From the NCBI GenBank assembly GCA_051362555.1, contig CM120642.1:34038001-34102000 (forward strand): DNA of 64,000 nt. The letters are read 5' to 3'. The DNA comes from Lingula anatina. Lineage: Eukaryota; Animalia; Brachiopoda. Both the position numbers and the translations under genes were made by a program. This document shows, one piece after another, positions 5,040-32,193 of the stretch. Numbering within the stretch: position 1 is the stretch's first letter; each line of letters begins with the position of its first letter. Under the pieces are notes generated by a model, which saw only the letters and a program-made list of their open reading frames with translations, was not told the origin of the DNA and searched no databases.

Positions 5040-8000
5040 CTAATCTGTCTTAGCCAAGGCAACCACAGTGAAGTGGATATTATCTGGATCCCTTGCCATG
5101 AACTTCTTCACCACTGCCGCAGCATCCTGAGCAGATAAAAAATAAAGCAGCTTTTTATCAATGAACTAGAGAAAATTTCCTCAACTGCAGTTTAGACTGA
5201 ATTAATGACTCACTTCAATATCATGCCACAATCCCTCTTCTATAACAAAAGCGGGTATGAAAATCCATGCTTTCAGACCTACCAATATCTCAAGTGTCTA
5301 ATTAAGAATTCTCTTACCATACATTAAAACAAACCAAGTTGAAAATAATAAAGGTGCCCTTATCATAATTTTTTTTTCACATGCAAATTCCAAGTAAATA
5401 TCAATAAAATCATGTCTTAATTCATAACTTATAGCAAACCAGTTATGGTAGAATGCTTTACCTCGAGTAGAGTATCTGCAGTAGTGTTGCCATGACGCTT
5501 TGGAGCATTTTTACGTCCATCTGCATAAGAAACAAAGAATCCAATGAAATCAACAAAGGAAACAAATCTCAATGGAAAATTTACAATAATGAACTCAAAT
5601 CATCAACTTTTTGTATTCCTGTTATCAATACCTTGCAAATTTTGCTACAAAGGATCTGACTGAAGTTTGTCAACATTTAGCAATCAGGAGATTATCGGTA
5701 TCACCATGCTGAACACAATGTGGGTCTCACCTAACGCAATCACAGGCTCAGTTATCACACTCAGTCTCAACTGTCACAATCAGGGTCTCACCTATCACAA
5801 TCAGCCTCAGCTTACACAATAAGGCACAACAAACACAATTAGGGTCTCAGATACCACACTGAAGACAGTGGACCATGTAAAATCATACTACGGTCAGAAT
5901 TCATGGTGAACACAGATTTTTCATCCATAATATTTCCTTTACTGATGAGTTATATCGCCATGTTTTAGAACTTACCCAATTCATAGAGACCACCATTATT
6001 ATGAACAAAGGTCACGAAATGGAGGTCGACTTTTTCATCTATTGGTGGTGGCTAGAATTTTACATGAAGCATATTAATATTAACAGGACTGTTCTTTTTC
6101 AAGTAAAAAATACAGGTAGTTAAATCATTCACCAAGCACGTCTATCTTGCGAACTGGTGTTACAAATTAAAGTATGCTGAACAAAAAATCAGATTTCTGT
6201 TATCCCATGGCAAATATTTTCATATACAATACAGTAAACTGCAGCATTTCAAATCATTCTAGGTTCTGTTGTGCAGTGTATATATATTTTAAAAAAAACA
6301 ACAAAACACAGACAGATGTATTCGCTCTTTCTATGATGTCAAATATAGTACCTGTGTCTGGCCCTCTTGTGCACTCGCTTCATGGGCTGCTCCTATGTCC
6401 TGAGTAACAAATAATAAATTATAGAGATCAATTTGACTGGAAACTTTAATCTTAAAATAACATTATAAATAAAAGCATTATCTCAACTTGGTAAAAGAAA
6501 AGAAATCCTACATTCTCAATACATTACCAAATACAGTAAGGCTGCATTTGAGGAGATCCAGTTTGTTGAGGTTTACTGATGAAAATTTCTAGTTAATTCT
6601 AGTTAATATGGAGTATTTCTATAAAGACACAAAGAGGTGGTTAAACATGGGGCTTTCAAAACATTGGAAATGAGGCCCTTTTTTTATAAAAACTGTAGAC
6701 ATTTTGATGAGAACATAATACAATTCTACATCATGATAGTACTAGTACATTTAAATACTCCACTTTGGCAGTGACAATCTTCAATTAAAAAAAAAACGCT
6801 TGATTTTAATTTTTATATAACTCTCAGGTAATCATTTCTGTTCTGCAAACATTGTTGGCAACAACAGCCCAGTTAACATAAGACTACTGACTCTCATACT
6901 ACAAATATTGTCATAACCAAAGTCTCTGAAAACTGAGTTCATCCATGCTAGGAAAGTTGTTATCTATCGTATTCATGTACTTAACTCTTCATTCATATGT
7001 TTTCCTCAGTCACATCTTAAAAGGGACAGAGACATATCATGAAGTATTCAAAAATATGTTGACCGAAAAAATGCAACCATCACACCCACATCAGTACTTA
7101 CTGGGTCTATTTCCAACTTCTTTGCTCTCTCATCAGGACTGATATCTTTGGTTTTGGCTAGGAAGTTAGCTAGAAAGTTATTACCTCCTACAAAAATATG
7201 GAAATTAAAATGTATGCAAGAACAGGAATACAACACAGCCATTATTTTTGCTTGCCAAATAACATGTCAAAACTTCCAGACTGAATGCTTGTTCCAAATT
7301 AAAATTTGGCAAAATTTAAAAGGATAACAACTGTTCATTTTGGCCAAAAAATGAATTTTTCTGGGGTAAACAACAATTTTCCCATAGTTAACAATGCTTA
7401 ATGAATCCATTTCTACATTCTGTGTTAGTCCCCTTTTTTTCGTAAAAAGTTTGTTTTTTTGTAATAATCTCTTAAGAGGTTATTACAGAGCATAGCCATC
7501 TATGGAGGTCATGTGGTCCAATGACAAGCACAGATTTCAGAATAATTGTCATAAATGCCATTTTTGTGGTAAAATAGAATATATCATATTTTGTCTCCTC
7601 ATCAACACAAGCGAAAGGATAAGTAAAGGACAAACACAAATGTAGTGTTCGAAATTTGGCCGGTAGCGTCCGCTTTTATTGAAAGGTCCCTCTAGTAAAG
7701 AATGGAGTTAGATATTATATAGCATTAGATAATGTTAATTAGTTAAAATTACTTAATGTTATATCATAAAAATAAATATCAAAACCAATAGTGCAAATAT
7801 TTTCATTTGTGGGGTTGCAAAGACCAGCACAGATTTCAGAATAATTGTCATAAATGCCATTTTTGTGGTAAAATGGAATATATTATATTTTTATGAGTTG
7901 CTTCCAATATATTTATTATGAAATATAGATCTCATACAAAGAGCTGTTCCCCCTTTAAATATTTTCCTTTTTAAAGCCAAACTAAATTTCATTCTACCAT

Positions 8001-22882: not shown

Positions 22883-24748
22883 CTACTGCATCTGACTGAG
22901 TTTTGCAGAGTATTTTCTGTCCTCTAAGTGAGCCTGTATTATCTGTGCAAACTCTGGTCTTTGTAGAAACTGGTACGCCATGGGTAGTAGGGCCAATATG
23001 AAGCCTTTAAATGTGTCTCCCCCCCCATAGGTGAACAGATCTAGTCCCAGTTCTAAGCCCTCCCCATAGTCACACTCATCATTGGCAAACTGCACTAGTG
23101 TTATCAACTCCTGCAGAGGGTCTATGTTCACATTTCTTTCTTCTTCTGTTTTACTGTTTTCAATTTTCTTGAACATCTTCTTTAAGTCAGCTAAAATTAG
23201 AAAATGAAAAGGAGTTAATGTCTGGTACTGCATTTTATTTTTGCTTAACTGCCTTTTTTTAATTGTGATGTTTTGTAATTATCAACAAAATTTATTAGTA
23301 ATAAAGTTATTACAGTATGGAATTGTTTTCATGAAAACCCACTTTGATGTCATGGTCAATTTTGCTAACATCATGAAAAAACCTCTGCTGTCATGAACAA
23401 CACTGTGACACCAGATATTCACCTAGTTCTAAACAATGGAATTAAATCTAATAATTATTTTGACAACCCAGGATATTCTGTACCCTACCTGGGCTCTCTA
23501 CCCCCCCCCTCCCCCCATCACCATATCCCCTACCTGGACTCTCTGGCACCTCCCTGTAGCCGACTTCATTGGCATCCACAGGGACCACAATTCCAGCCCC
23601 ATGAAATGTCTTACAGACCACCTTCTTAGCCCGGGCCTTCATCGCTTTGGTCTGTGCTTCTAGAGAATAACTCTTCTTCTCTGACCACGAAATTAGCTTG
23701 GACTGCAGATCTGTCAACTTGGCCTTGGAAGATTTGTCCTTCTTGATTTTTTCATCAATGAGCAATCTGCAAGGCAATGAACCAAATCATGAAATGTAGT
23801 TTTTTGACGCTTCTCTCTTTTATGGTGTGAATGTAACATGCATTTCGGGTTTACACAAGTTCACTTTGACTTCCAGCCAACATTTCCACAAAAGAGTATT
23901 GGTACATAAGTGATGAATAAGAAATCAATTTTTTTTAATTTCATAGAGTTATGCAAATGAAAGGATAGGTATTTTTATAATTCTTCCATACAAAACTAAC
24001 AAAAACAATGATGTCCACGAAAAATTCAATTTTGGAGGTAAATATCAGATAGGATATTTTTTTATAATTACAAAAAAAACTTAATACTCACTTCACACAG
24101 GCAAACACATTCTCTCCCATGGGTTTAATAATGCCATTCTCTGCTGCTGCATTGGTAGCCACAAAACATGGAAGCTCCTTTGGGTCATCTCTAAGAAATA
24201 AAAATTTATACATGAAAAATATAAAAAAAAATCTTGAAAGTTTTTTGTGCCCGTTTCTTTCCACTCCCTTAAAACTACATTTTAATAGCTTTCAATTTCA
24301 TTATTATTATTATTCTTACTTTAGGACAGCTGTCATCACAAAAATTAAAATAAAGACATTATTTCATTTAAAAAGGAGGTCGAATGTCACATTATAATAT
24401 CTTTTACTCATTTTAAGTTTCCTTAAGCCTTCGCATTATGTATCTATATGTTAAGTGTAACTCAGAAACACTCCTACCTATAATATCCCATATGAAACCT
24501 GACCTACATGTACCTGTATGCAACATAAAGTGTAACTCAGAAAGGCTCTTACCTATAATATCCTATGTGAAACTGTAGAGTATCATCTCCTTTGATAACT
24601 GTGAGGAACTCTGGAGGATCATAGAAGTATCTCCAGTGTCTGAGATAACATGGAGGAGCACCTGAGCTGTTCACCTTGACACATTGACCGGCTAGCACAT
24701 CATATGGTCCTACCAGCTGCAAACCCAGACACTCCACCAATGCATCTG

Positions 24749-24780
<32 letters not shown>

Positions 24781-27700
24781 CAGTACTAATAATAATAACA
24801 ATAATAACATTATCGGTATAAATATATTCTATAGCTATTTGTGTCATTTTAAGTTGATAAACTAATAACTTCTTTTGACAAGTTCAGATGTTTGACAGCT
24901 GAAAGTTGGTCAATTTCTGTGAAATACAAAATTTGACCATAGATTTTTATTGTTTGAGTAAAGTGACCAAAGAGCTTCCATGGTATAAAGTTTATCTATA
25001 ATACTACAGAAGAGACAGTCTTCTGTGCTTTTTTCACAGAATGTTACATCTCTTTGAAGTAATGAAATAATCACACCTCCTCAAAAACTGGATTTTTTAT
25101 ACTGAAGAAGGCAATAAATGGTTTAATTTAACAGTAAAACTGAAAAGTTTAATTTAAAGGGATAATAACTCTTCGTTTTGGCCAAAAAATGAATTTTCCT
25201 GGAGTAAACAACAATTTTCCCTTACTTTCCAATGGTTAATGAATCCATTTTTACGTTCAAAGTTAGCCCCTGGTTTTTTTCTAAAAAGTTTGTTTCTTAA
25301 GAGATTATAACAGAGTATAGCCATCAATGGAGATCACGTGATCTGAAGACAAGCTCAGATATCAGAATAATAGCCATAATTCAAAAATTAAATGAGATTT
25401 ATTGAAATTTAATTGAAATTCTATGAAGTTTCTAATACAAATGAGAGGTCATACGAGATTTCCGTTTTTGCGAGAGCACTTGCGCACGATAGTCACTATC
25501 TCGAGTGACCAGCACTGCATACCAGAAAATTGATGCAATTGTAATACCACTATACAAAAAAGGAATATGAAATCCTTCTCAGACAAAGTATATCCTTCTC
25601 ATCCCGTTAACTAAATGAAGATAATATAAATAATTATCTTAGGTGCATTATAAATACCAACCCAAAATATGGTAATGAATTGATATGATAACTTAAGTTA
25701 TCTTAGGTGCATTACAAAATATCAACCCATAAATATGGTTTTACATGTTACTATGTAAACCAGGCACTGCCCCCCCCCCCCTTTTGCTGTGGAATAGGGG
25801 AGGTGGGTGGGCGTATGACCTCTCATTTGTATTAGAAACTTCATAGAATTTCAATTAAATTTCAATAAATCTCATTTAATTTTTGAATTCTATTTCGTTT
25901 CTATACAAATGAGGTCATACGAGATTCCCGTTTTATGCGAGAGCATATGCGCACTTGCGCACATCTCCACAGTTCGAAGCTTGCTGGTCACGAGAGCAAC
26001 TTGGCTCTGAACATAGTACTACATACCTTTTCTAATTATTTAAAACTGCGTCAGCAAACTCTTTCCCTTTAATGGGTTTATTATAGTACTTTGCAAAAGT
26101 CTTGCTTGAAGACCATCCAGCTGCTTTCAAAATATCATCTACGGGAACTTTTGCTCTTTCTGCTGCCGACACTGCTGCAGCTCGGGTTGAATGAGCCTTA
26201 AATGATTCCTCTACACCTGCTTGGTGCATCAATATCCGAATCCATCTGGATATTGTATCTTTTGAAACGGATGAGAAAGGTTTTCTAAAACTAATAAAAA
26301 ATTTTTCTTGTCCATTTCTCAATGGCTTTGTCCTTTTTAAATATTCCTTAACATATGTCAATGTACACAATCTCCTATCTGGAGGGTACGATTTAAATTG
26401 TATAGATATTGTACCAATTCCTGGTCTTGTTTGTTTCAAAGTTTCTTTTATTTTAAATAAAACATAGTTTTTGTGAAGTTCTAACTCTTGGAACTTCAGT
26501 AAATGCAACGTTTGTGCTCTCTGTGCAGATGTAAGAGACATAAGCATGATCAACTTCATTGTTAGATCTTTCAGTGATAACTGCCTTGCTGGTGACAGTT
26601 TTCTCATGTAATTTAAAACAATTGATACATCCCACACTTGTTGATATCTGGATGCAGTAGGTCGAGTGTTAAACACTCCTTTCAAAAACCTTACAATCAA
26701 AGGATGACTCCCCACTGTTGAAGCACCAATGGTAATAAATGTTGATAATGCACATCTTGCAGTGTTTATAGCACTGTAACTTGAGCCATCTTCATAGAGA
26801 TGTACTAAAAAATCTAGCACATTCGCTACAGTTGGTCTATAAAAATTGACCTTCCTTTGATTTGAAAACATTCTCCACTTTTTAATATAGACTGAATATT
26901 GGTTCTGAGTGGATTTTCTCCATGATTGAAATATGATTCCGATAGCTCTCTCTGAAATTCTATCTGATTTGAGAGTTTTCCGGATACTTTGCATGCCAAC
27001 AGTTTCAAATGATTTCCCATTGGGTGTGTCACCCCTTTCTGGTGTGGAAGTGATAATACTGTTGTTGTTGGCGGTAACAGAATAGGGATGTCTACTAACA
27101 TTTCCATTAATGGAGTGAACCATGCTTGTGTCAACCAAAAAGGTATCACAACTAAAGCATCTGCCTGATCTTCCCGAATCTTCTTGATTATCCTGGGAAT
27201 CAGGCTGAAAGGAGGAAAAATGTATGAATACATATTCTCCCAAGATATTGAAAAAGCATTAATGTATTTAGCACCAGGTTCTGGTTTCCAAGAAGCAAAT
27301 ACTTCTAATTTGCTATTCAATCTTGATGCAAATAGATCTATACATGGCATACCAAATATATCTGTCACTTTTTTAAATATATCAATATTTAGTGACCATT
27401 CAGTTCTAATATTCACATTTCTTGATTCCCAATCTGCCTCTACATTTAATATTCCAGGCAAATATTCAGCAGTAAGCCATATGTCATTTTCAATGCATTT
27501 ATTCCATATGTCTGATACTATTTCATCACAAACTGGGGATTTCAAACCTCCCATATGTGTAATGTATGCAACTGCTGTAGTATTATCAGATCTCAATAAA
27601 ACTACCTTTCCTTTGATTTCTTGAATAAAGGCATGTAAAGCCATTTTTATAGCAAGCAATTCAAATGCATTGATATTATCATGACAGAATAAAATTTCTT

Positions 27701-30700
27701 CTTCAGTAAAGAATCCACCAATTCTTGTATCTCTACATTTAGCTCCCCATGCTAAAGGAGTAGCATCTGATTGAATTTCAATCTGTGCATTGCCATGATA
27801 AATTTTATTTGTTGCAAACAATATATTTCTAGACCACCAGTCTAGATCTACTTTCATGTCATCTGTAATATCCATTACAGCTTCATAATCATCTTTATTT
27901 TGTTTCAATGCATTAATTTTTGCTCTCTCTAGTTTCCTATAATGCAATGGCCCATATTGGACTCCAGGCAAACATGATATTAATATTCCTAATATTTTTG
28001 CAATTTCTCTAATAGATGCATCATCTCTTCTGATTGAATCATCAATCATTTCTTTATAAACTTGTTTCTTTTCATTGGTCAGTTGCACAGTCATATTTTT
28101 AGAGTTTATTTTAAATCCCAAAAATACAATTTCTTGAGTTGGGATTAATGCTGACTTTTCGTCATGGATCAAAAATCCACAAGTTTTGAATAACTTAACA
28201 GTTTCTTGTACTGCCCATAGACATTCATTTTCTGAACTAGCTTGTATATAAATGTCATCTATATAAGATATCATAATAATCCCTTTCCTTCTTAAGGATG
28301 CACATAATGGCTTTAATAATTTTGTGAATGCTCTCGGAGCATCTGAATAGCCATTTGGAAGGGCAGTATACATATATAATTTATTTCTCCATTGAAATTT
28401 GAGAAACTTCTGATGCTCTTTGTAAATTCTAACCATATAATATGCATCTCGTAAATCTATGCGTGCCATGTATGCTTTATGACACAATAAATTCAAGACT
28501 GTCTTTAAAGTATCCATTTTAAACTTATGGTACTTCATAAATTTGTTGAAAGGTTTAAGATTTAATATCATTCTTCTTGTGCCATCTTTTTTAGGCCTAG
28601 TAAATATTGTATTGACAAATTGTCCTTCTTCATTTTGTGTTTCAACAATGACACCTTTACATAATAATCTTGAAACTTCAATATCAATCAATTTTTCTTC
28701 AGATTCTGTGAATCTTATTTCTCTTAATGGTGTCGTCTGTTTAGGATAATTATTATCCACAAATTCCAATCTTAAACCTCTAACAGTCTGTAACACCCAA
28801 GCATCAGATGTCAGCAATTCCCATTGGGAAATAAACTTTGATATTCTACCAGCAATGTTATGTTGAGGACTTACCTCAAAAATTTTCTTCAACTTTTCCA
28901 CATCTAATGATGCAGAGTTGCAGGGCAGTTTTTTAAATCCTGCTGCCTGTGATAGGTCCTAATATGACCTCTACTGGTGCCACTTCTTGCACCTCTTATG
29001 CTCTTAGGAGGAAAACTTCTTCCCCTAGCTCGCATGCTGGTTCTGCTTCCTCTTTCTCTGGGAGTCCCAGAATATGATGAACCAGTGTTTTTAAACACTT
29101 GGTGATTCATTTTGTTGACATCAGACATGTCACGGATTCTTTTTACTATTTCATCCCCAAAAAGCCTATTTGTATATGGGATGGAACTTGCACACAAATG
29201 TGAATATTGCTTATCAATGTGAGGTCTTAAAACCTCTTTCCTTCTAGTGCAAAGTTCAAAGTTTGTGCAACCAAATGCTCGAAGTGCATTCGTAGCATCA
29301 TTGATTATTTCTTCAAAATCTTCTTCTTCCAAATTTTTAGTATCTGAATCCCATTTACTAATGAGTTTGTTCATTGCAACTGCCATTGAGGAAACGCCCT
29401 TTATCAAATAATTTTGCACTCTCTGAAGCTTTAAATCTTGTGTTTTAGCATCATGACTAATGCTAGGCCATATTTCTTCGTTAATAATAATTGGCTGCAA
29501 ACCTTCACAGTTGGAAGGAGCTAAAATTTTCTCAAAAAGAGCTTTGGTCTCCTCTTCCATTGGTTTAGACCTCATGAAAGCTGTAATGTTGTCAGCTAAG
29601 GTTGTGTTAATTTCAGGCCCTTTGGGCTCAGATTTTTTAGCTGTTTCAGTCATTTTCTTCAAGACTTTCATTTTCTTTTCTGGAAGAAGTTCTTCCTCTA
29701 TGTGTCTTTTACTGGTACTGGGATTTTCATTATGGGCAGTGTCTGCCATCTCGACTACTTGGTCTGAATCCCGAGCGTCACTAAGAACTGACGTGTCGTC
29801 ATAAATTGGCTCTTCATAATACTCATGAGGATATTCATACCTTATTTCGTTTTTAAAATCCTCCATTTGCTTTTGAAGACTATCTTGCATATTCTTCATT
29901 GTGCCAGCTATGAAGTCAAGTGCTGCACTAATTTTATGATCCACAGTCGTGGCATTATCGGCACTAGTGGACGCGCCATTTTCATTTTCCACATGAACGC
30001 TACTCTGCGTCAGAGTTTGAATTTCTGTTAGAAATTGTGGTGAGTCACCACTTTCTTTCGACTTCCCGTCGGAAGATTTCTTGTGGCCATGCGTATTTTT
30101 CTTAACTTTTGGTCTACTTTCGACCTTTTCAGCCATAATATTAGAATATTCTTGAAAATTTTTGTGCCACAATTTTTCCACGTGCCGTGCTCGCTCGACA
30201 AAAAAACCGGAAGTGGAGATGTGCGCAAGTGCGCATATGCTCTCGCATAAAACGGGAATCTCGTATGACCTCATTTGTATAGAAACGAAATAGAACTGCT
30301 GCTTTGTCTTAAAACAGAATATATTATATTTCTATGAGTTTTTCACAATGTTTTTATTGTGAAATATAGATCTCATACGAAGAGTTATTATCCCTTTAAC
30401 TAAGCACAGTGAAGACCCAGATGGTTTGAGATACATAAATATACGTGAAATCACAAGTTTATAATTATTTTAATATAGTGTCACTAGTGTACAGAATGGT
30501 AAGTCAATGTGTAAATGCACAAGAAAGGGGCCTGTGTGTGGCACTTGGTCGTTTATAATAAGTACATGATAACATACCAGATGGACACTCAGGGTTGAGT
30601 GTTTTACAAAATTCCCAAAATTCATAAAAGTCATCTGGCATTTCCATCAGGAATTTTTCCTTTATAAACTCCTTCACATCACCAGGACATTCAAACTCCA

Positions 30701-32193
30701 GCTGGACTTGGCTTTCTGGGGGAAATAAAACTTTCAAATCACACAAATGTGTTCCAAAAGAAAAAAAACTACATACAAACAAGAAAATAACTACAAGTAG
30801 CTTTTAAAAGAGATGTTATTACTGAGCAACATAGGACAGGCAATTATATGTTTTCAATATTTTCATTTCTTTTCATCTGATCTTTGTATGTGAATGTCCC
30901 AGAACTTCTATCATAGCTGGACATATTAAAAGTGGCAAGTATAGCAATCTTAGTTAATGGAGGTGATGGAAGCATACATGTAGTTTTTGCATCTTCAGTG
31001 ATCAGAGTTACTAAACAACTTGAAAATATCAGCCATGGTCCTGCAGCATACACACCTTTTTCACTGTCATCTGGGGAACCAGCTGCTGTAGTGTTCTGGT
31101 CTGTTTTCTCTGGTGATACACTTTCTTTCCTCCTTCTTTTGGCAGGAGATTCTACACCCTACAATGTAAGACATTGCACTGTGACAAAGTGCAAGATTTA
31201 AACCTATGTTAAGGACAAATAACATTCTGTTGAACCTTTCTGAGGACAAATAATACTTTTTGGTCATTTAAAACATAAAAGCCATGAAACACCTGACAAT
31301 TAAATCTTACCACATGTCCACCATCTGGACTGTTTTGTATTGACCACAACTCAGAAGTCAATGTTCAGAATGAAGGCAGAATTTGAAAAGCATACACTTA
31401 GGCTGTTGGGGTTTTATTTAAGGACTTCTTACTTTTCTCTGACTGTTAAAGAGTTATGACAAGTGTCAGGAAATGAAGGTTGTTTAGTTGGAGAAAAAAC
31501 AATGTTTACATCAGAAACATCCTTTAGATACAAATTTTCATTGCAAGAATTTGAAGAAAAACTTACATGGTGCACCTTAAAATTAGACACTATTTGCACA
31601 CACATCATCAGAGTACTGTGCACATGTTACAACTACTGGTAATTATGAGAACTTTACAATTTGAGACACACTTGGAAATATGCAGCCACACTGGTAAACA
31701 TGTCCTGGAAGACTAATGCTAGTACTACATGTATACTGCACACGATGTGATGTTGATATTTACGTACGGTTCTTAGTAAGACTGCATTGCACGTTAGTTT
31801 GCAAATGACAGAGCATCCACTTTGTTTTTGCTTTGCACATTACGATAGCGTAGCTTGATACTTAACAGGTCGTTTTGTGTTTTCTGCACCCCCCCCCCCC
31901 CGGGTCCCCCAGAGCTTCATCAACCGACAAACGTGGAAGCAAAGCAGCTGTTACTACATATATTAAGCGCTTAACGTCAGATTGAAATTGTAATTTTCAG
32001 ATGGCGGGAAATTGCATGCAAGAGCACCCGTTACTTATCGCGAGACACAAACCTCTGATGCATCATTCCACGGATGACTGAACTCTTTAAGATGTCTGGG
32101 GTTTTTCCTGTAGCACTTTTTACCATACGTGCACAGTGGTTTTCTGTCTCTTTTCTCGGCTTGCTCACTACTTCGCTTACCCTTGTCAGCCAT
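22883..32193 (-). CDS. HPF1: Histone PARylation factor 1 with N-terminal PBZ zinc finger, 7 exons, about 404 aa
   Basis: Exons (minus): 32193-32053, 31158-31056, 30715-30578, 24745-24553, 24190-24092, 23766-23534, 23190-22883. Motifs [34 protein letters not shown] and [15 protein letters not shown]. Exon 1 has [20 protein letters not shown] (PBZ). Confidence 0.95.
25812..25970. repeat. DIRS internal complementary region (ICR)
   Basis: 25812-25889 is the reverse complement of 25378-25455, and 25888-25970 is the reverse complement of 30213-30295. The two halves join at TT (25888-25889), the predicted circle junction. Confidence 0.93.
26032..27243 (-). CDS. DIRS tyrosine recombinase (YR), overlapping the MT domain of pol
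   Basis: Catalytic set R (SAQRAQTL), K (LKQTR), HSTR, W (AAGWSS) and Y (FAKYY). Confidence 0.93.
   Translation of the reverse strand: MGEYVFIHFSSFQPDSQDNQEDSGRSGRCFSCDTFLVDTSMVHSINGNVSRHPYSVTANNNSIITSTPERGDTPNGKSFETVGMQSIRKTLKSDRISERAIGIIFQSWRKSTQNQYSVYIKKWRMFSNQRKVNFYRPTVANVLDFLVHLYEDGSSYSAINTARCALSTFITIGASTVGSHPLIVRFLKGVFNTRPTASRYQQVWDVSIVLNYMRKLSPARQLSLKDLTMKLIMLMSLTSAQRAQTLHLLKFQELELHKNYVLFKIKETLKQTRPGIGTISIQFKSYPPDRRLCTLTYVKEYLKRTKPLRNGQEKFFISFRKPFSSVSKDTISRWIRILMHQAGVEESFKAHSTRAAAVSAAERAKVPVDDILKAAGWSSSKTFAKYYNKPIKGKEFADAVLNN
26826..28901 (-). CDS. DIRS pol: reverse transcriptase, RNase H and adenine-methyltransferase-like domain
   Basis: RT motifs [23 protein letters not shown] and YIDD. 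RNase H motifs [25 protein letters not shown] and [11 protein letters not shown] motifs IDLFASRLN and YIFPPF. The ORF-track start is GTG; the first ATG is codon 111. Confidence 0.93.
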   Translation of the reverse strand: MEKLKKIFEVSPQHNIAGRISKFISQWELLTSDAWVLQTVRGLRLEFVDNNYPKQTTPLREIRFTESEEKLIDIEVSRLLCKGVIVETQNEEGQFVNTIFTRPKKDGTRRMILNLKPFNKFMKYHKFKMDTLKTVLNLLCHKAYMARIDLRDAYYMVRIYKEHQKFLKFQWRNKLYMYTALPNGYSDAPRAFTKLLKPLCASLRRKGIIMISYIDDIYIQASSENECLWAVQETVKLFKTCGFLIHDEKSALIPTQEIVFLGFKINSKNMTVQLTNEKKQVYKEMIDDSIRRDDASIREIAKILGILISCLPGVQYGPLHYRKLERAKINALKQNKDDYEAVMDITDDMKVDLDWWSRNILFATNKIYHGNAQIEIQSDATPLAWGAKCRDTRIGGFFTEEEILFCHDNINAFELLAIKMALHAFIQEIKGKVVLLRSDNTTAVAYITHMGGLKSPVCDEIVSDIWNKCIENDIWLTAEYLPGILNVEADWESRNVNIRTEWSLNIDIFKKVTDIFGMPCIDLFASRLNSKLEVFASWKPEPGAKYINAFSISWENMYSYIFPPFSLIPRIIKKIREDQADALVVIPFWLTQAWFTPLMEMLVDIPILLPPTTTVLSLPHQKGVTHPMGNHLKLLACKVSGKLSNQIEFQRELSESYFNHGENPLRTNIQSILKSGECFQIKGRSIFIDQL
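28904..30136 (-). CDS. DIRS gag-like ORF1 (about 410 aa from ATG 30136)
   Basis: First long ORF after the left ITR. Contains [17 protein letters not shown] and LFGDE segments of the kind seen in DIRS ORF1, and an Arg/Gly-rich C-terminus. Confidence 0.85.
   Translation of the reverse strand: MAEKVESRPKVKKNTHGHKKSSDGKSKESGDSPQFLTEIQTLTQSSVHVENENGASTSADNATTVDHKISAALDFIAGTMKNMQDSLQKQMEDFKNEIRYEYPHEYYEEPIYDDTSVLSDARDSDQVVEMADTAHNENPSTSKRHIEEELLPEKKMKVLKKMTETAKKSEPKGPEINTTLADNITAFMRSKPMEEETKALFEKILAPSNCEGLQPIIINEEIWPSISHDAKTQDLKLQRVQNYLIKGVSSMAVAMNKLISKWDSDTKNLEEEDFEEIINDATNALRAFGCTNFELCTRRKEVLRPHIDKQYSHLCASSIPYTNRLFGDEIVKRIRDMSDVNKMNHQVFKNTGSSYSGTPRERGSRTSMRARGRSFPPKSIRGARSGTSRGHIRTYHRQQDLKNCPATLHH

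Follow-up and report, generated by a model that had tools for sequence, protein, structure and literature searches.

Short-overlap retrotransposons of the DIRS1-like family, such as LgDIRS, AcaDIRS, SkoDIRS and NveDIRS6b, are about 5 kb long and carry gag, a reverse transcriptase (RT)/RNase H/methyltransferase region (here called pol) and a tyrosine recombinase (YR) with an HSTR motif; they have inverted termini, an internal complementary region (ICR), a right extension, NTT ends and an AAT junction (Table 3 and related passages of PMC3266345). In the same table, the DIRS1 elements of fish and frog show the long-overlap layout. The same domains and ICR-dependent replication are known from Dictyostelium DIRS-1 and from further DIRS1 elements with long overlap, as far as the available passages of PMC7192593, PMC3950715 and PMC5633606 describe them. 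We report here on an intact member of this known family, located in a 64,000-nucleotide stretch of DNA from the brachiopod Lingula anatina (assembly GCA_051362555.1, contig CM120642.1, positions 34,038,001 to 34,102,000 of the forward strand; hereafter the window, to which all coordinates refer). The element resembles the short-overlap elements in the features listed above; to their account in the available parts of PMC3266345, which state no expression route for pol or YR, it adds a design made of a slip site, the gag stop, a splice donor and a splice acceptor. Unlike in Dictyostelium DIRS-1 and the other long-overlap elements, its YR open reading frame (ORF) does not overlap all of pol.

Retroviruses and Ty3/Gypsy elements link gag and pol by a -1 frameshift at an X XXY YYZ heptamer followed by a 3' structure, and env is expressed from a spliced RNA from which pol has been removed. 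The env donor lies upstream of gag or early in it, env has its own start, and the polyprotein is cut by a protease. In the element described here, by contrast, the donor lies after the gag stop and no protease was found. For Ngaro elements, it has been proposed that YR is made by frameshifting from the RT/RNase H frame (Poulter and Butler 2015, as quoted in PMC13003380). Programmed frameshifting is a suggested route to YR in both cases, but the Ngaro YR would be fused to pol, whereas here the frameshift is at the gag/pol boundary and YR would be reached by splicing pol out. Plant Ty1/Copia elements offer another parallel, since there the amount of structural relative to catalytic proteins depends on an optional intron; according to the available parts of PMC5580714, that splice yields only Gag and operates on a single gag-pol ORF, whereas the splice proposed here would exchange one enzyme for another behind a shared frameshift.

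Neither "intron" nor "splic" occurs in PMC3266345, PMC9210276 or PMC3783388, and the available portions of PMC7192593, PMC9341512, PMC3266345, PMC9210276, PMC5633606, PMC3783388, PMC6681497 and PMC3950715 do not describe how the RT or the recombinase of DIRS elements is expressed. The scheme set out below is not described in the literature searched, though a mention of it could exist in Goodwin and Poulter 2001, Poulter and Goodwin 2005, Poulter and Butler 2015 or Repbase, which the searches did not reach. It is likely an expression strategy undescribed so far, in a known family.

Results

Splice and slip signals of the Lingula element

A preliminary description of this locus, made from the sequence alone, had proposed that a -1 frameshift is coupled with optional splicing. 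The donor at 28874, the acceptor at 27205, the predicted 1670-nt intron between them and the 0/0 phases on which this proposal was built were all confirmed on the minus strand (Table 1). The gag stop sits 29 nt before the donor, which is the sole GTAAGT in the element and also its top-scoring donor; when codons were resampled with the amino acids fixed, the probability of a donor this good was 0.003. The acceptor tract ends in CAG. With a consensus donor and an acceptor that are both under selection and in phase, the segment reads as a putative spliceosomal GT-AG intron. The donor lies within a small predicted hairpin (28879-28863 on the minus strand; 6-bp stem, loop UAAGU), which could limit splicing.

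The -1 slip signal that had been invoked just upstream, for entry into the pol frame, was found as two in-phase heptamers at 28937 and 28934. A predicted hairpin begins 4 nt past the heptamers and ends upstream of the donor (-12.1 kcal/mol, z -2.2), so that an in-phase X XXY YYZ heptamer is followed by a 3' RNA structure, the make-up of a -1 frameshift signal. Upstream of the donor, the pol frame contains no Met. Codon counts give 410 aa for Gag, about 1103 aa for the predicted Gag-Pol and about 811 aa for the predicted Gag-YR, close to the sizes first estimated for the two fusions (about 1100 and 810 aa). The YR frame is open from 27258 to 26032; position 27243, previously taken as an ATG at which YR might start, is TTG, and the first ATGs of this frame are at 27123 and 26994.

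Quite probably, frameshifting and optional splicing yield both Gag-Pol and Gag-YR from one slip site. Partial splicing from 28874 to 27205 would produce two RNAs, and a -1 slip on the heptamer shortly ahead of the gag stop would lead to Gag-RT/RNase H/methyltransferase on the unspliced RNA and to Gag-tyrosine recombinase on the spliced one. Most ribosomes would end at the gag TAG on both RNAs, so that Gag would be in excess. The unspliced RNA would double as the reverse-transcription template and, as there is no recognisable protease, the two enzymes would remain tethered to Gag and thereby enter the particle. Actual splicing and frameshifting, the fusion proteins and their packaging are what we infer from the sequence.

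The three ORFs correspond to gag, RT/RNase H/methyltransferase and tyrosine recombinase, the set that characterizes DIRS1-like elements. Pol comprises an RT (YIDD), RNase H motifs and an adenine methyltransferase-like part (DLFAS, FPPF). Pfam matches were obtained with RVT_1 (E 2e-19), Phage_integrase (E 5e-9) and Dam (E 0.01, weaker than the cut-off); RNase H was identified by motifs only, and gag, whose ORF had no Pfam match, by homology to relatives. The absence of a recognisable protease, noted earlier, held up: neither an aspartic protease nor a DDE integrase was matched in Pfam at E<=0.1, and there is no D[ST]G in gag or pol, though the element may contain a protease of an unrecognised kind.

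Table 1. Window coordinates of the DIRS1-like element, its predicted expression signals and its surroundings.
Feature	Position	Strand	Remarks
DIRS1-like retrotransposon, whole	25378..30295	-	4918 bp, 3 uninterrupted ORFs
Left terminus	30213..30295	-	83 nt, 100% complementary to ICR left half
gag ORF	28904..30136	-	410 aa, ATG 30136 to TAG 28906-28904
pol ORF	26826..28958	-	710 codons stop to stop
Tandem -1 slippery heptamers	28928..28937	-	T TTA AAA (28937) / A AAA AAC (28934), overlapping, gag-to-pol phase
Predicted hairpin	28887..28923	-	3' of slip site; kept in spliced RNA
Splice donor GAG/GTAAGT (predicted)	28869..28877	-	first intron base 28874; phase 0 in pol frame
Predicted optional intron	27205..28874	-	1670 nt; RT, RNase H and most of methyltransferase coding region
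Splice acceptor (predicted)	27205..27220	-	written into FPPF-S codons (Ser = AGC); phase 0 in YR frame
Predicted YR exon	26032..27204	-	390 codons; Pfam Phage_integrase and SAM-like domain; RAQT, HSTR, KYY motifs
ICR	25812..25970	-	halves overlap at AAT circular junction, 25890-25888
Right terminus	25378..25487	-	inverted terminal repeat and right extension; ends in ATT
TTAA-bounded non-coding element (target site)	25154..30399	.	23-nt inverted ends; split by DIRS insertion
HPF1-like host gene	22883..30715	-	DIRS element sense-strand in one intron

Relatives of the element

Relatives were collected through a pol alignment search, which provided 80 loci in metagenome contigs (the top 80 among 494 confirmed matches, with 22 of 64 parts scanned) and 30 loci in genome bins, presumably eukaryotic DNA within these assemblies. 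They are mostly 30-46% identical to the pol of the window element. Five loci were dropped because they had no FPPF anchor, and the remaining 105, together with the window element, formed 91 clusters at 75% nucleotide identity, each represented by one member. Seven representatives were long-overlap (YR frame spanning all of pol) and 84 short-overlap, 8 of these by default since they had no in-frame YR anchor; in a quick tree, the 7 long-overlap elements make up one side of a branch with a support of 99. Each test below was applied to the subset having the required region, so that denominators give subset sizes, and splice scores were computed with approximate frequencies. No relatives turned up when viral contigs were scanned twice. 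Many prokaryote genome bins (loci L081-L110) contain contigs with DIRS retrotransposons, with 27 YR matches in bin G001, likely contamination from a eukaryotic host. L017 and L018 are two inverted copies of the same element on one contig, possibly an assembly artefact.

Conservation of the slip site, donor and acceptor

The arrangement of gag and pol could be determined in the 72 elements with enough upstream DNA: pol was one base out of the gag frame in 52 short-overlap elements, and in frame in 11; 2 elements were seemingly broken, and the other 7 were long-overlap. An in-phase heptamer was present in the gag/pol overlap of 43 of the 52 elements with a frame change, against 4.1 expected from the rate in gag, most commonly A AAA AAC (19) or T TTT TTA (15). 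Nine elements had none; 2 of these have no overlap and 5 have a TTTTTTG run. The order slip site, gag stop, donor was observed in 43 out of 43. Predicted folding of the 60 nt downstream of the slip site is stronger than that of controls from gag (mean z -1.47 vs -0.34), and in 38 of 50 elements, the window element included, the pol frame contains no Met from the point where it opens up to the donor, leaving frameshifting as the only evident entry to this frame.

In the 54 intact short-overlap elements, the best donor in the 200 nt before AGRL was in phase 0 in 43 cases, in phase 1 in 11 and in phase 2 in none, and the best phase-0 donor outscored nearly all interior pol windows of the same length (p<=0.04) in 47. 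In frameshift-type elements (n = 50), the best post-gag phase-0 donor lies 2-50 nt behind the gag stop; in 34 of them it scores above every other GT in gag and pol, and in 36 it has p<=0.1 upon synonymous codon resampling. GTA or GTG is used at the donor in 43 of the 50, compared with 835 of 1649 in the background, while the distance from the donor to AGRL floats from 9 to 354 nt. Two other arrangements were considered and rejected. A pairing of phase-1 donors with phase-1 acceptors in FPPFC/A elements was dropped, the acceptors being in phase 0 and a phase-0 donor overlapping 4 nt upstream. Donors within gag, which would give Gag-YR without a frameshift, were scattered in position and phase (10/11/6).

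A similar bias was found at the acceptor. FPPF is followed by Ser in 65 of the 84 short-overlap elements, and this Ser is encoded by AGY in 62 and by TCN in 3, whereas AGY accounts for 492 of 2085 pol Ser codons (24%) and for only 7 of 50 and 9 of 40 at two other conserved Ser sites. The acceptor AG at FPPF was found in none of the 7 long-overlap elements. The third base of the FPPF Pro codons is a pyrimidine in 86 of 110 where an acceptor is predicted, versus 547 of 1094 Pro codons across pol and 24 of 52 in elements that lack a predicted acceptor at this place. Pol and YR are both intact in 49 elements; counted from the FPPF AG onwards, the YR frame stays open in 37 of the 38 that have this AG and in 1 of the 11 that do not; across the body of pol, stops occur in the YR frame at 9.2% per codon (one per 11 codons).

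Elements without the FPPF AG have pyrimidine-rich phase-0 acceptors elsewhere, at +23/26, +149/152, +179 or +224/227, mostly shortly after, or exactly at, the last stop of the YR frame. These relocated acceptors occur on several branches of the tree; the +14 state corresponds to 7 changes, only 2 of which are forced by well-supported branches. Of the 63 short-overlap elements whose YR is intact, 56 had their top acceptor in phase 0, versus 1 of 6 long-overlap elements. The predicted acceptor shifts position yet keeps phase 0. The expectation that a phase-matched post-gag donor and FPPF acceptor would be found in relatives was borne out, each being conserved at the nucleotide level in distant relatives. 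Such a comparison, which had also been suggested for fish and amphibian elements, would probably be negative in these without refuting the scheme, since DIRS1 elements from fish and frog have the long-overlap layout, in which no FPPF acceptor was found.

A Gag-YR gene model in a brittle star

Long YR proteins were searched for twice, with 30 distinct matches in all. One of them, P0133, an NCBI model of 846 aa from the brittle star Amphiura filiformis, consists of a Gag domain and a YR domain, without pol. The last Gag residues of P0133 are KGE, as in exon 1 of its relative L021 (RGE in L013), and PDW comes next; from there on, the alignment with the predicted YR exons of L013, L021 and the window element is gapless and starts at their residue 1. 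The predicted Gag-YR of L013 is about 844 aa long. P0133 is, at the level of a gene model, an outside annotation of a Gag-YR join at the predicted junction, in a relative. Together with the conserved slip site, donor and acceptor and their phase match, it supports the interpretation that Gag-YR would be made. No locus in which gag adjoins YR without pol was found among the 110 pol-selected loci.

Several observations weigh against this interpretation. An outstanding phase-0 donor within 200 nt was missing in 7 of the 54 elements, including L072, which is one of the two nearest neighbours of the window element in the tree; in L007, the donor is further upstream and in L082 none was found. Conversely, 2 of the 7 long-overlap elements also have a phase-0 donor above background. 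As clusters share descent, the p-values overstate the independence of the observations. P0133 is a gene model of the in-frame gag-pol type, in which no frameshift is needed, and only 1 of 30 long YR proteins; in other models among the 30, pol is joined to YR, at differing positions. The 30 YR loci in five genome bins, with about 1.5 kb inspected upstream of each, included no spliced DNA copy. Finally, a Met is present upstream of the YR core in 40 of 49 intact elements, so that a free YR would be possible in most of them.

Alternative explanations

This last observation leads to the main rival, namely that the splice is real and the frameshift serves only to make Gag-Pol, free YR being produced by re-initiation at AUG 27123 or 26994 of the spliced RNA. 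Splicing would move these AUGs close to the gag stop, and in 14 of the 40 elements the Met precedes the SWR motif by 23 codons, as does the one at 26994 in the window. Yet re-initiation needs neither the phase match nor the approximately 90 open codons past the acceptor, both of which are kept; 9 of the 49 elements have no Met before the YR core; and P0133, as well as the two proteins P0130 and P0132, have Gag and YR in one chain. We consider re-initiation rather unlikely. Less credit still is given to the possibility that the spliced RNA is mainly regulatory, either lowering the amount of full-length RNA or serving as a Gag-only message, with YR made from a separate internal transcript. It is true that plant Ty1/Copia elements make Gag-only subgenomic spliced RNAs (as reported in the available parts of PMC5580714) and that most ribosomes on the spliced RNA would yield Gag alone, but a regulatory role leaves unexplained why relocated acceptors are in phase 0 and sited where the YR frame opens.

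We also considered that no splicing occurs at all, the motifs being by-products of constraint on the protein and YR being expressed from an internal promoter. FPPF is indeed pyrimidine-rich when encoded, it is conserved in long-overlap elements too, and Val-Ser can be spelled GTAAGT. If protein constraint were the cause, the bias should not lie at synonymous positions, as it does for the AGY codons, the Pro third bases, the GTA/GTG choice and the recoding test described above, nor should the donor float with respect to AGRL. This explanation appears very improbable, and the coupling of a frameshift with optional splicing is the reading that we retain.

Elements with other gag-pol layouts

In 8 of the 11 in-frame gag-pol elements, the phase-0 donor is accompanied by an out-of-phase one no more than 12 nt away, compared with 3 of 52 frameshift-type elements. 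The two donors are just upstream of AGRL and 5 nt apart in L006, L013, L021 and L076, 4 nt in L049, L053 and L055, and 7 nt in L064; L007 has a pair 8 nt apart, further upstream. Use of the out-of-phase donor would lead to a stop within 0-12 codons and hence to free Gag (in 6 of the 8, with a mapped acceptor), and splicing may in this way stand in for the frameshift. The count should be read with the reservation that the in-frame elements stem from approximately two clades with different geometry and are not independent. L006, L013, L021 and L076 represent a closer parallel to the Ty1/Copia intron, as described in the available parts of PMC5580714. Some 290-320 nt upstream of AGRL, the fused gag-pol frame of L049, L053 and L055 contains a T TTT TTA heptamer in the -1 phase, which in L049 and L055 is directly followed by a strong phase-1 donor.

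Four long-overlap elements (L101, L102, L103 and L106) have YR in the gag frame behind a single TAG, a candidate for readthrough, and in both P0130 and P0132 one ORF extends from Gag through YR without a stop. We lean slightly towards the view that DIRS1-like elements always deliver the recombinase as an uncleaved Gag fusion, by interchangeable routes: a -1 frameshift with pol spliced out, in the window element and most short-overlap relatives; an in-frame gag-pol with tandem donors, giving Gag-YR or free Gag, in which splicing replaces the frameshift; or a long overlapping ORF joined to gag either without interruption or via one readthrough stop. If so, the split between long- and short-overlap elements would be one between "no intron" and "pol is an intron".

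Implications

The scheme gives exact coordinates for the expression of RT and recombinase in a DIRS element. It would explain how the recombinase is made as well as the two ORF layouts of the family, and the functional integrase would probably be Gag-YR rather than the annotated YR ORF. This is relevant to the reconstitution of DIRS integration and to the annotation of these elements, which are very common in animals. It would also provide unusual cases of compact coding, with an acceptor inside the FPPF codons of a methyltransferase and one slip site feeding two enzymes.

Termini, insertion site and surroundings

Both ends of the element are complementary to the ICR, as in other DIRS1-like elements, over 83 nt on the left and 78 nt on the right, each at 100%; the right-hand match is with the right half of the ICR. 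This perfect complementarity points to a recent insertion. The left end carries GTT, the right one ATT and the ICR contains AAT, corresponding to NTT ends that match a 3-bp circular junction. The split direct repeats of PAT, Ngaro and VIPER elements were not found, the long terminal repeats being inverted. An imperfect tandem repeat of 64-66 nt is present between the ICR and the right terminus (25614-25739).

The element is inserted in a TTAA-bounded non-autonomous DNA element, which we take to be Kolobok-like, a miniature inverted-repeat transposable element (MITE) that is thereby split into 25154-25377 and 30296-30399. A second copy, with an internal duplication, is present at 7313-7961. There is no target duplication, the flanks continuing the split MITE as in its second copy.

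A strong donor is present at 26026 on the minus strand, 5 nt past the YR stop; a donor at this place was conserved in only 6 of 60 relatives. Combined with the acceptor at 27205, it could give a cryptic exon of the HPF1-like transcript. Two ORFs downstream of the DIRS element match Pfam HPF1, and an upstream exon of this host gene is presumably located at 30579-30713, as assigned from splice signals, with no Pfam match of its own.

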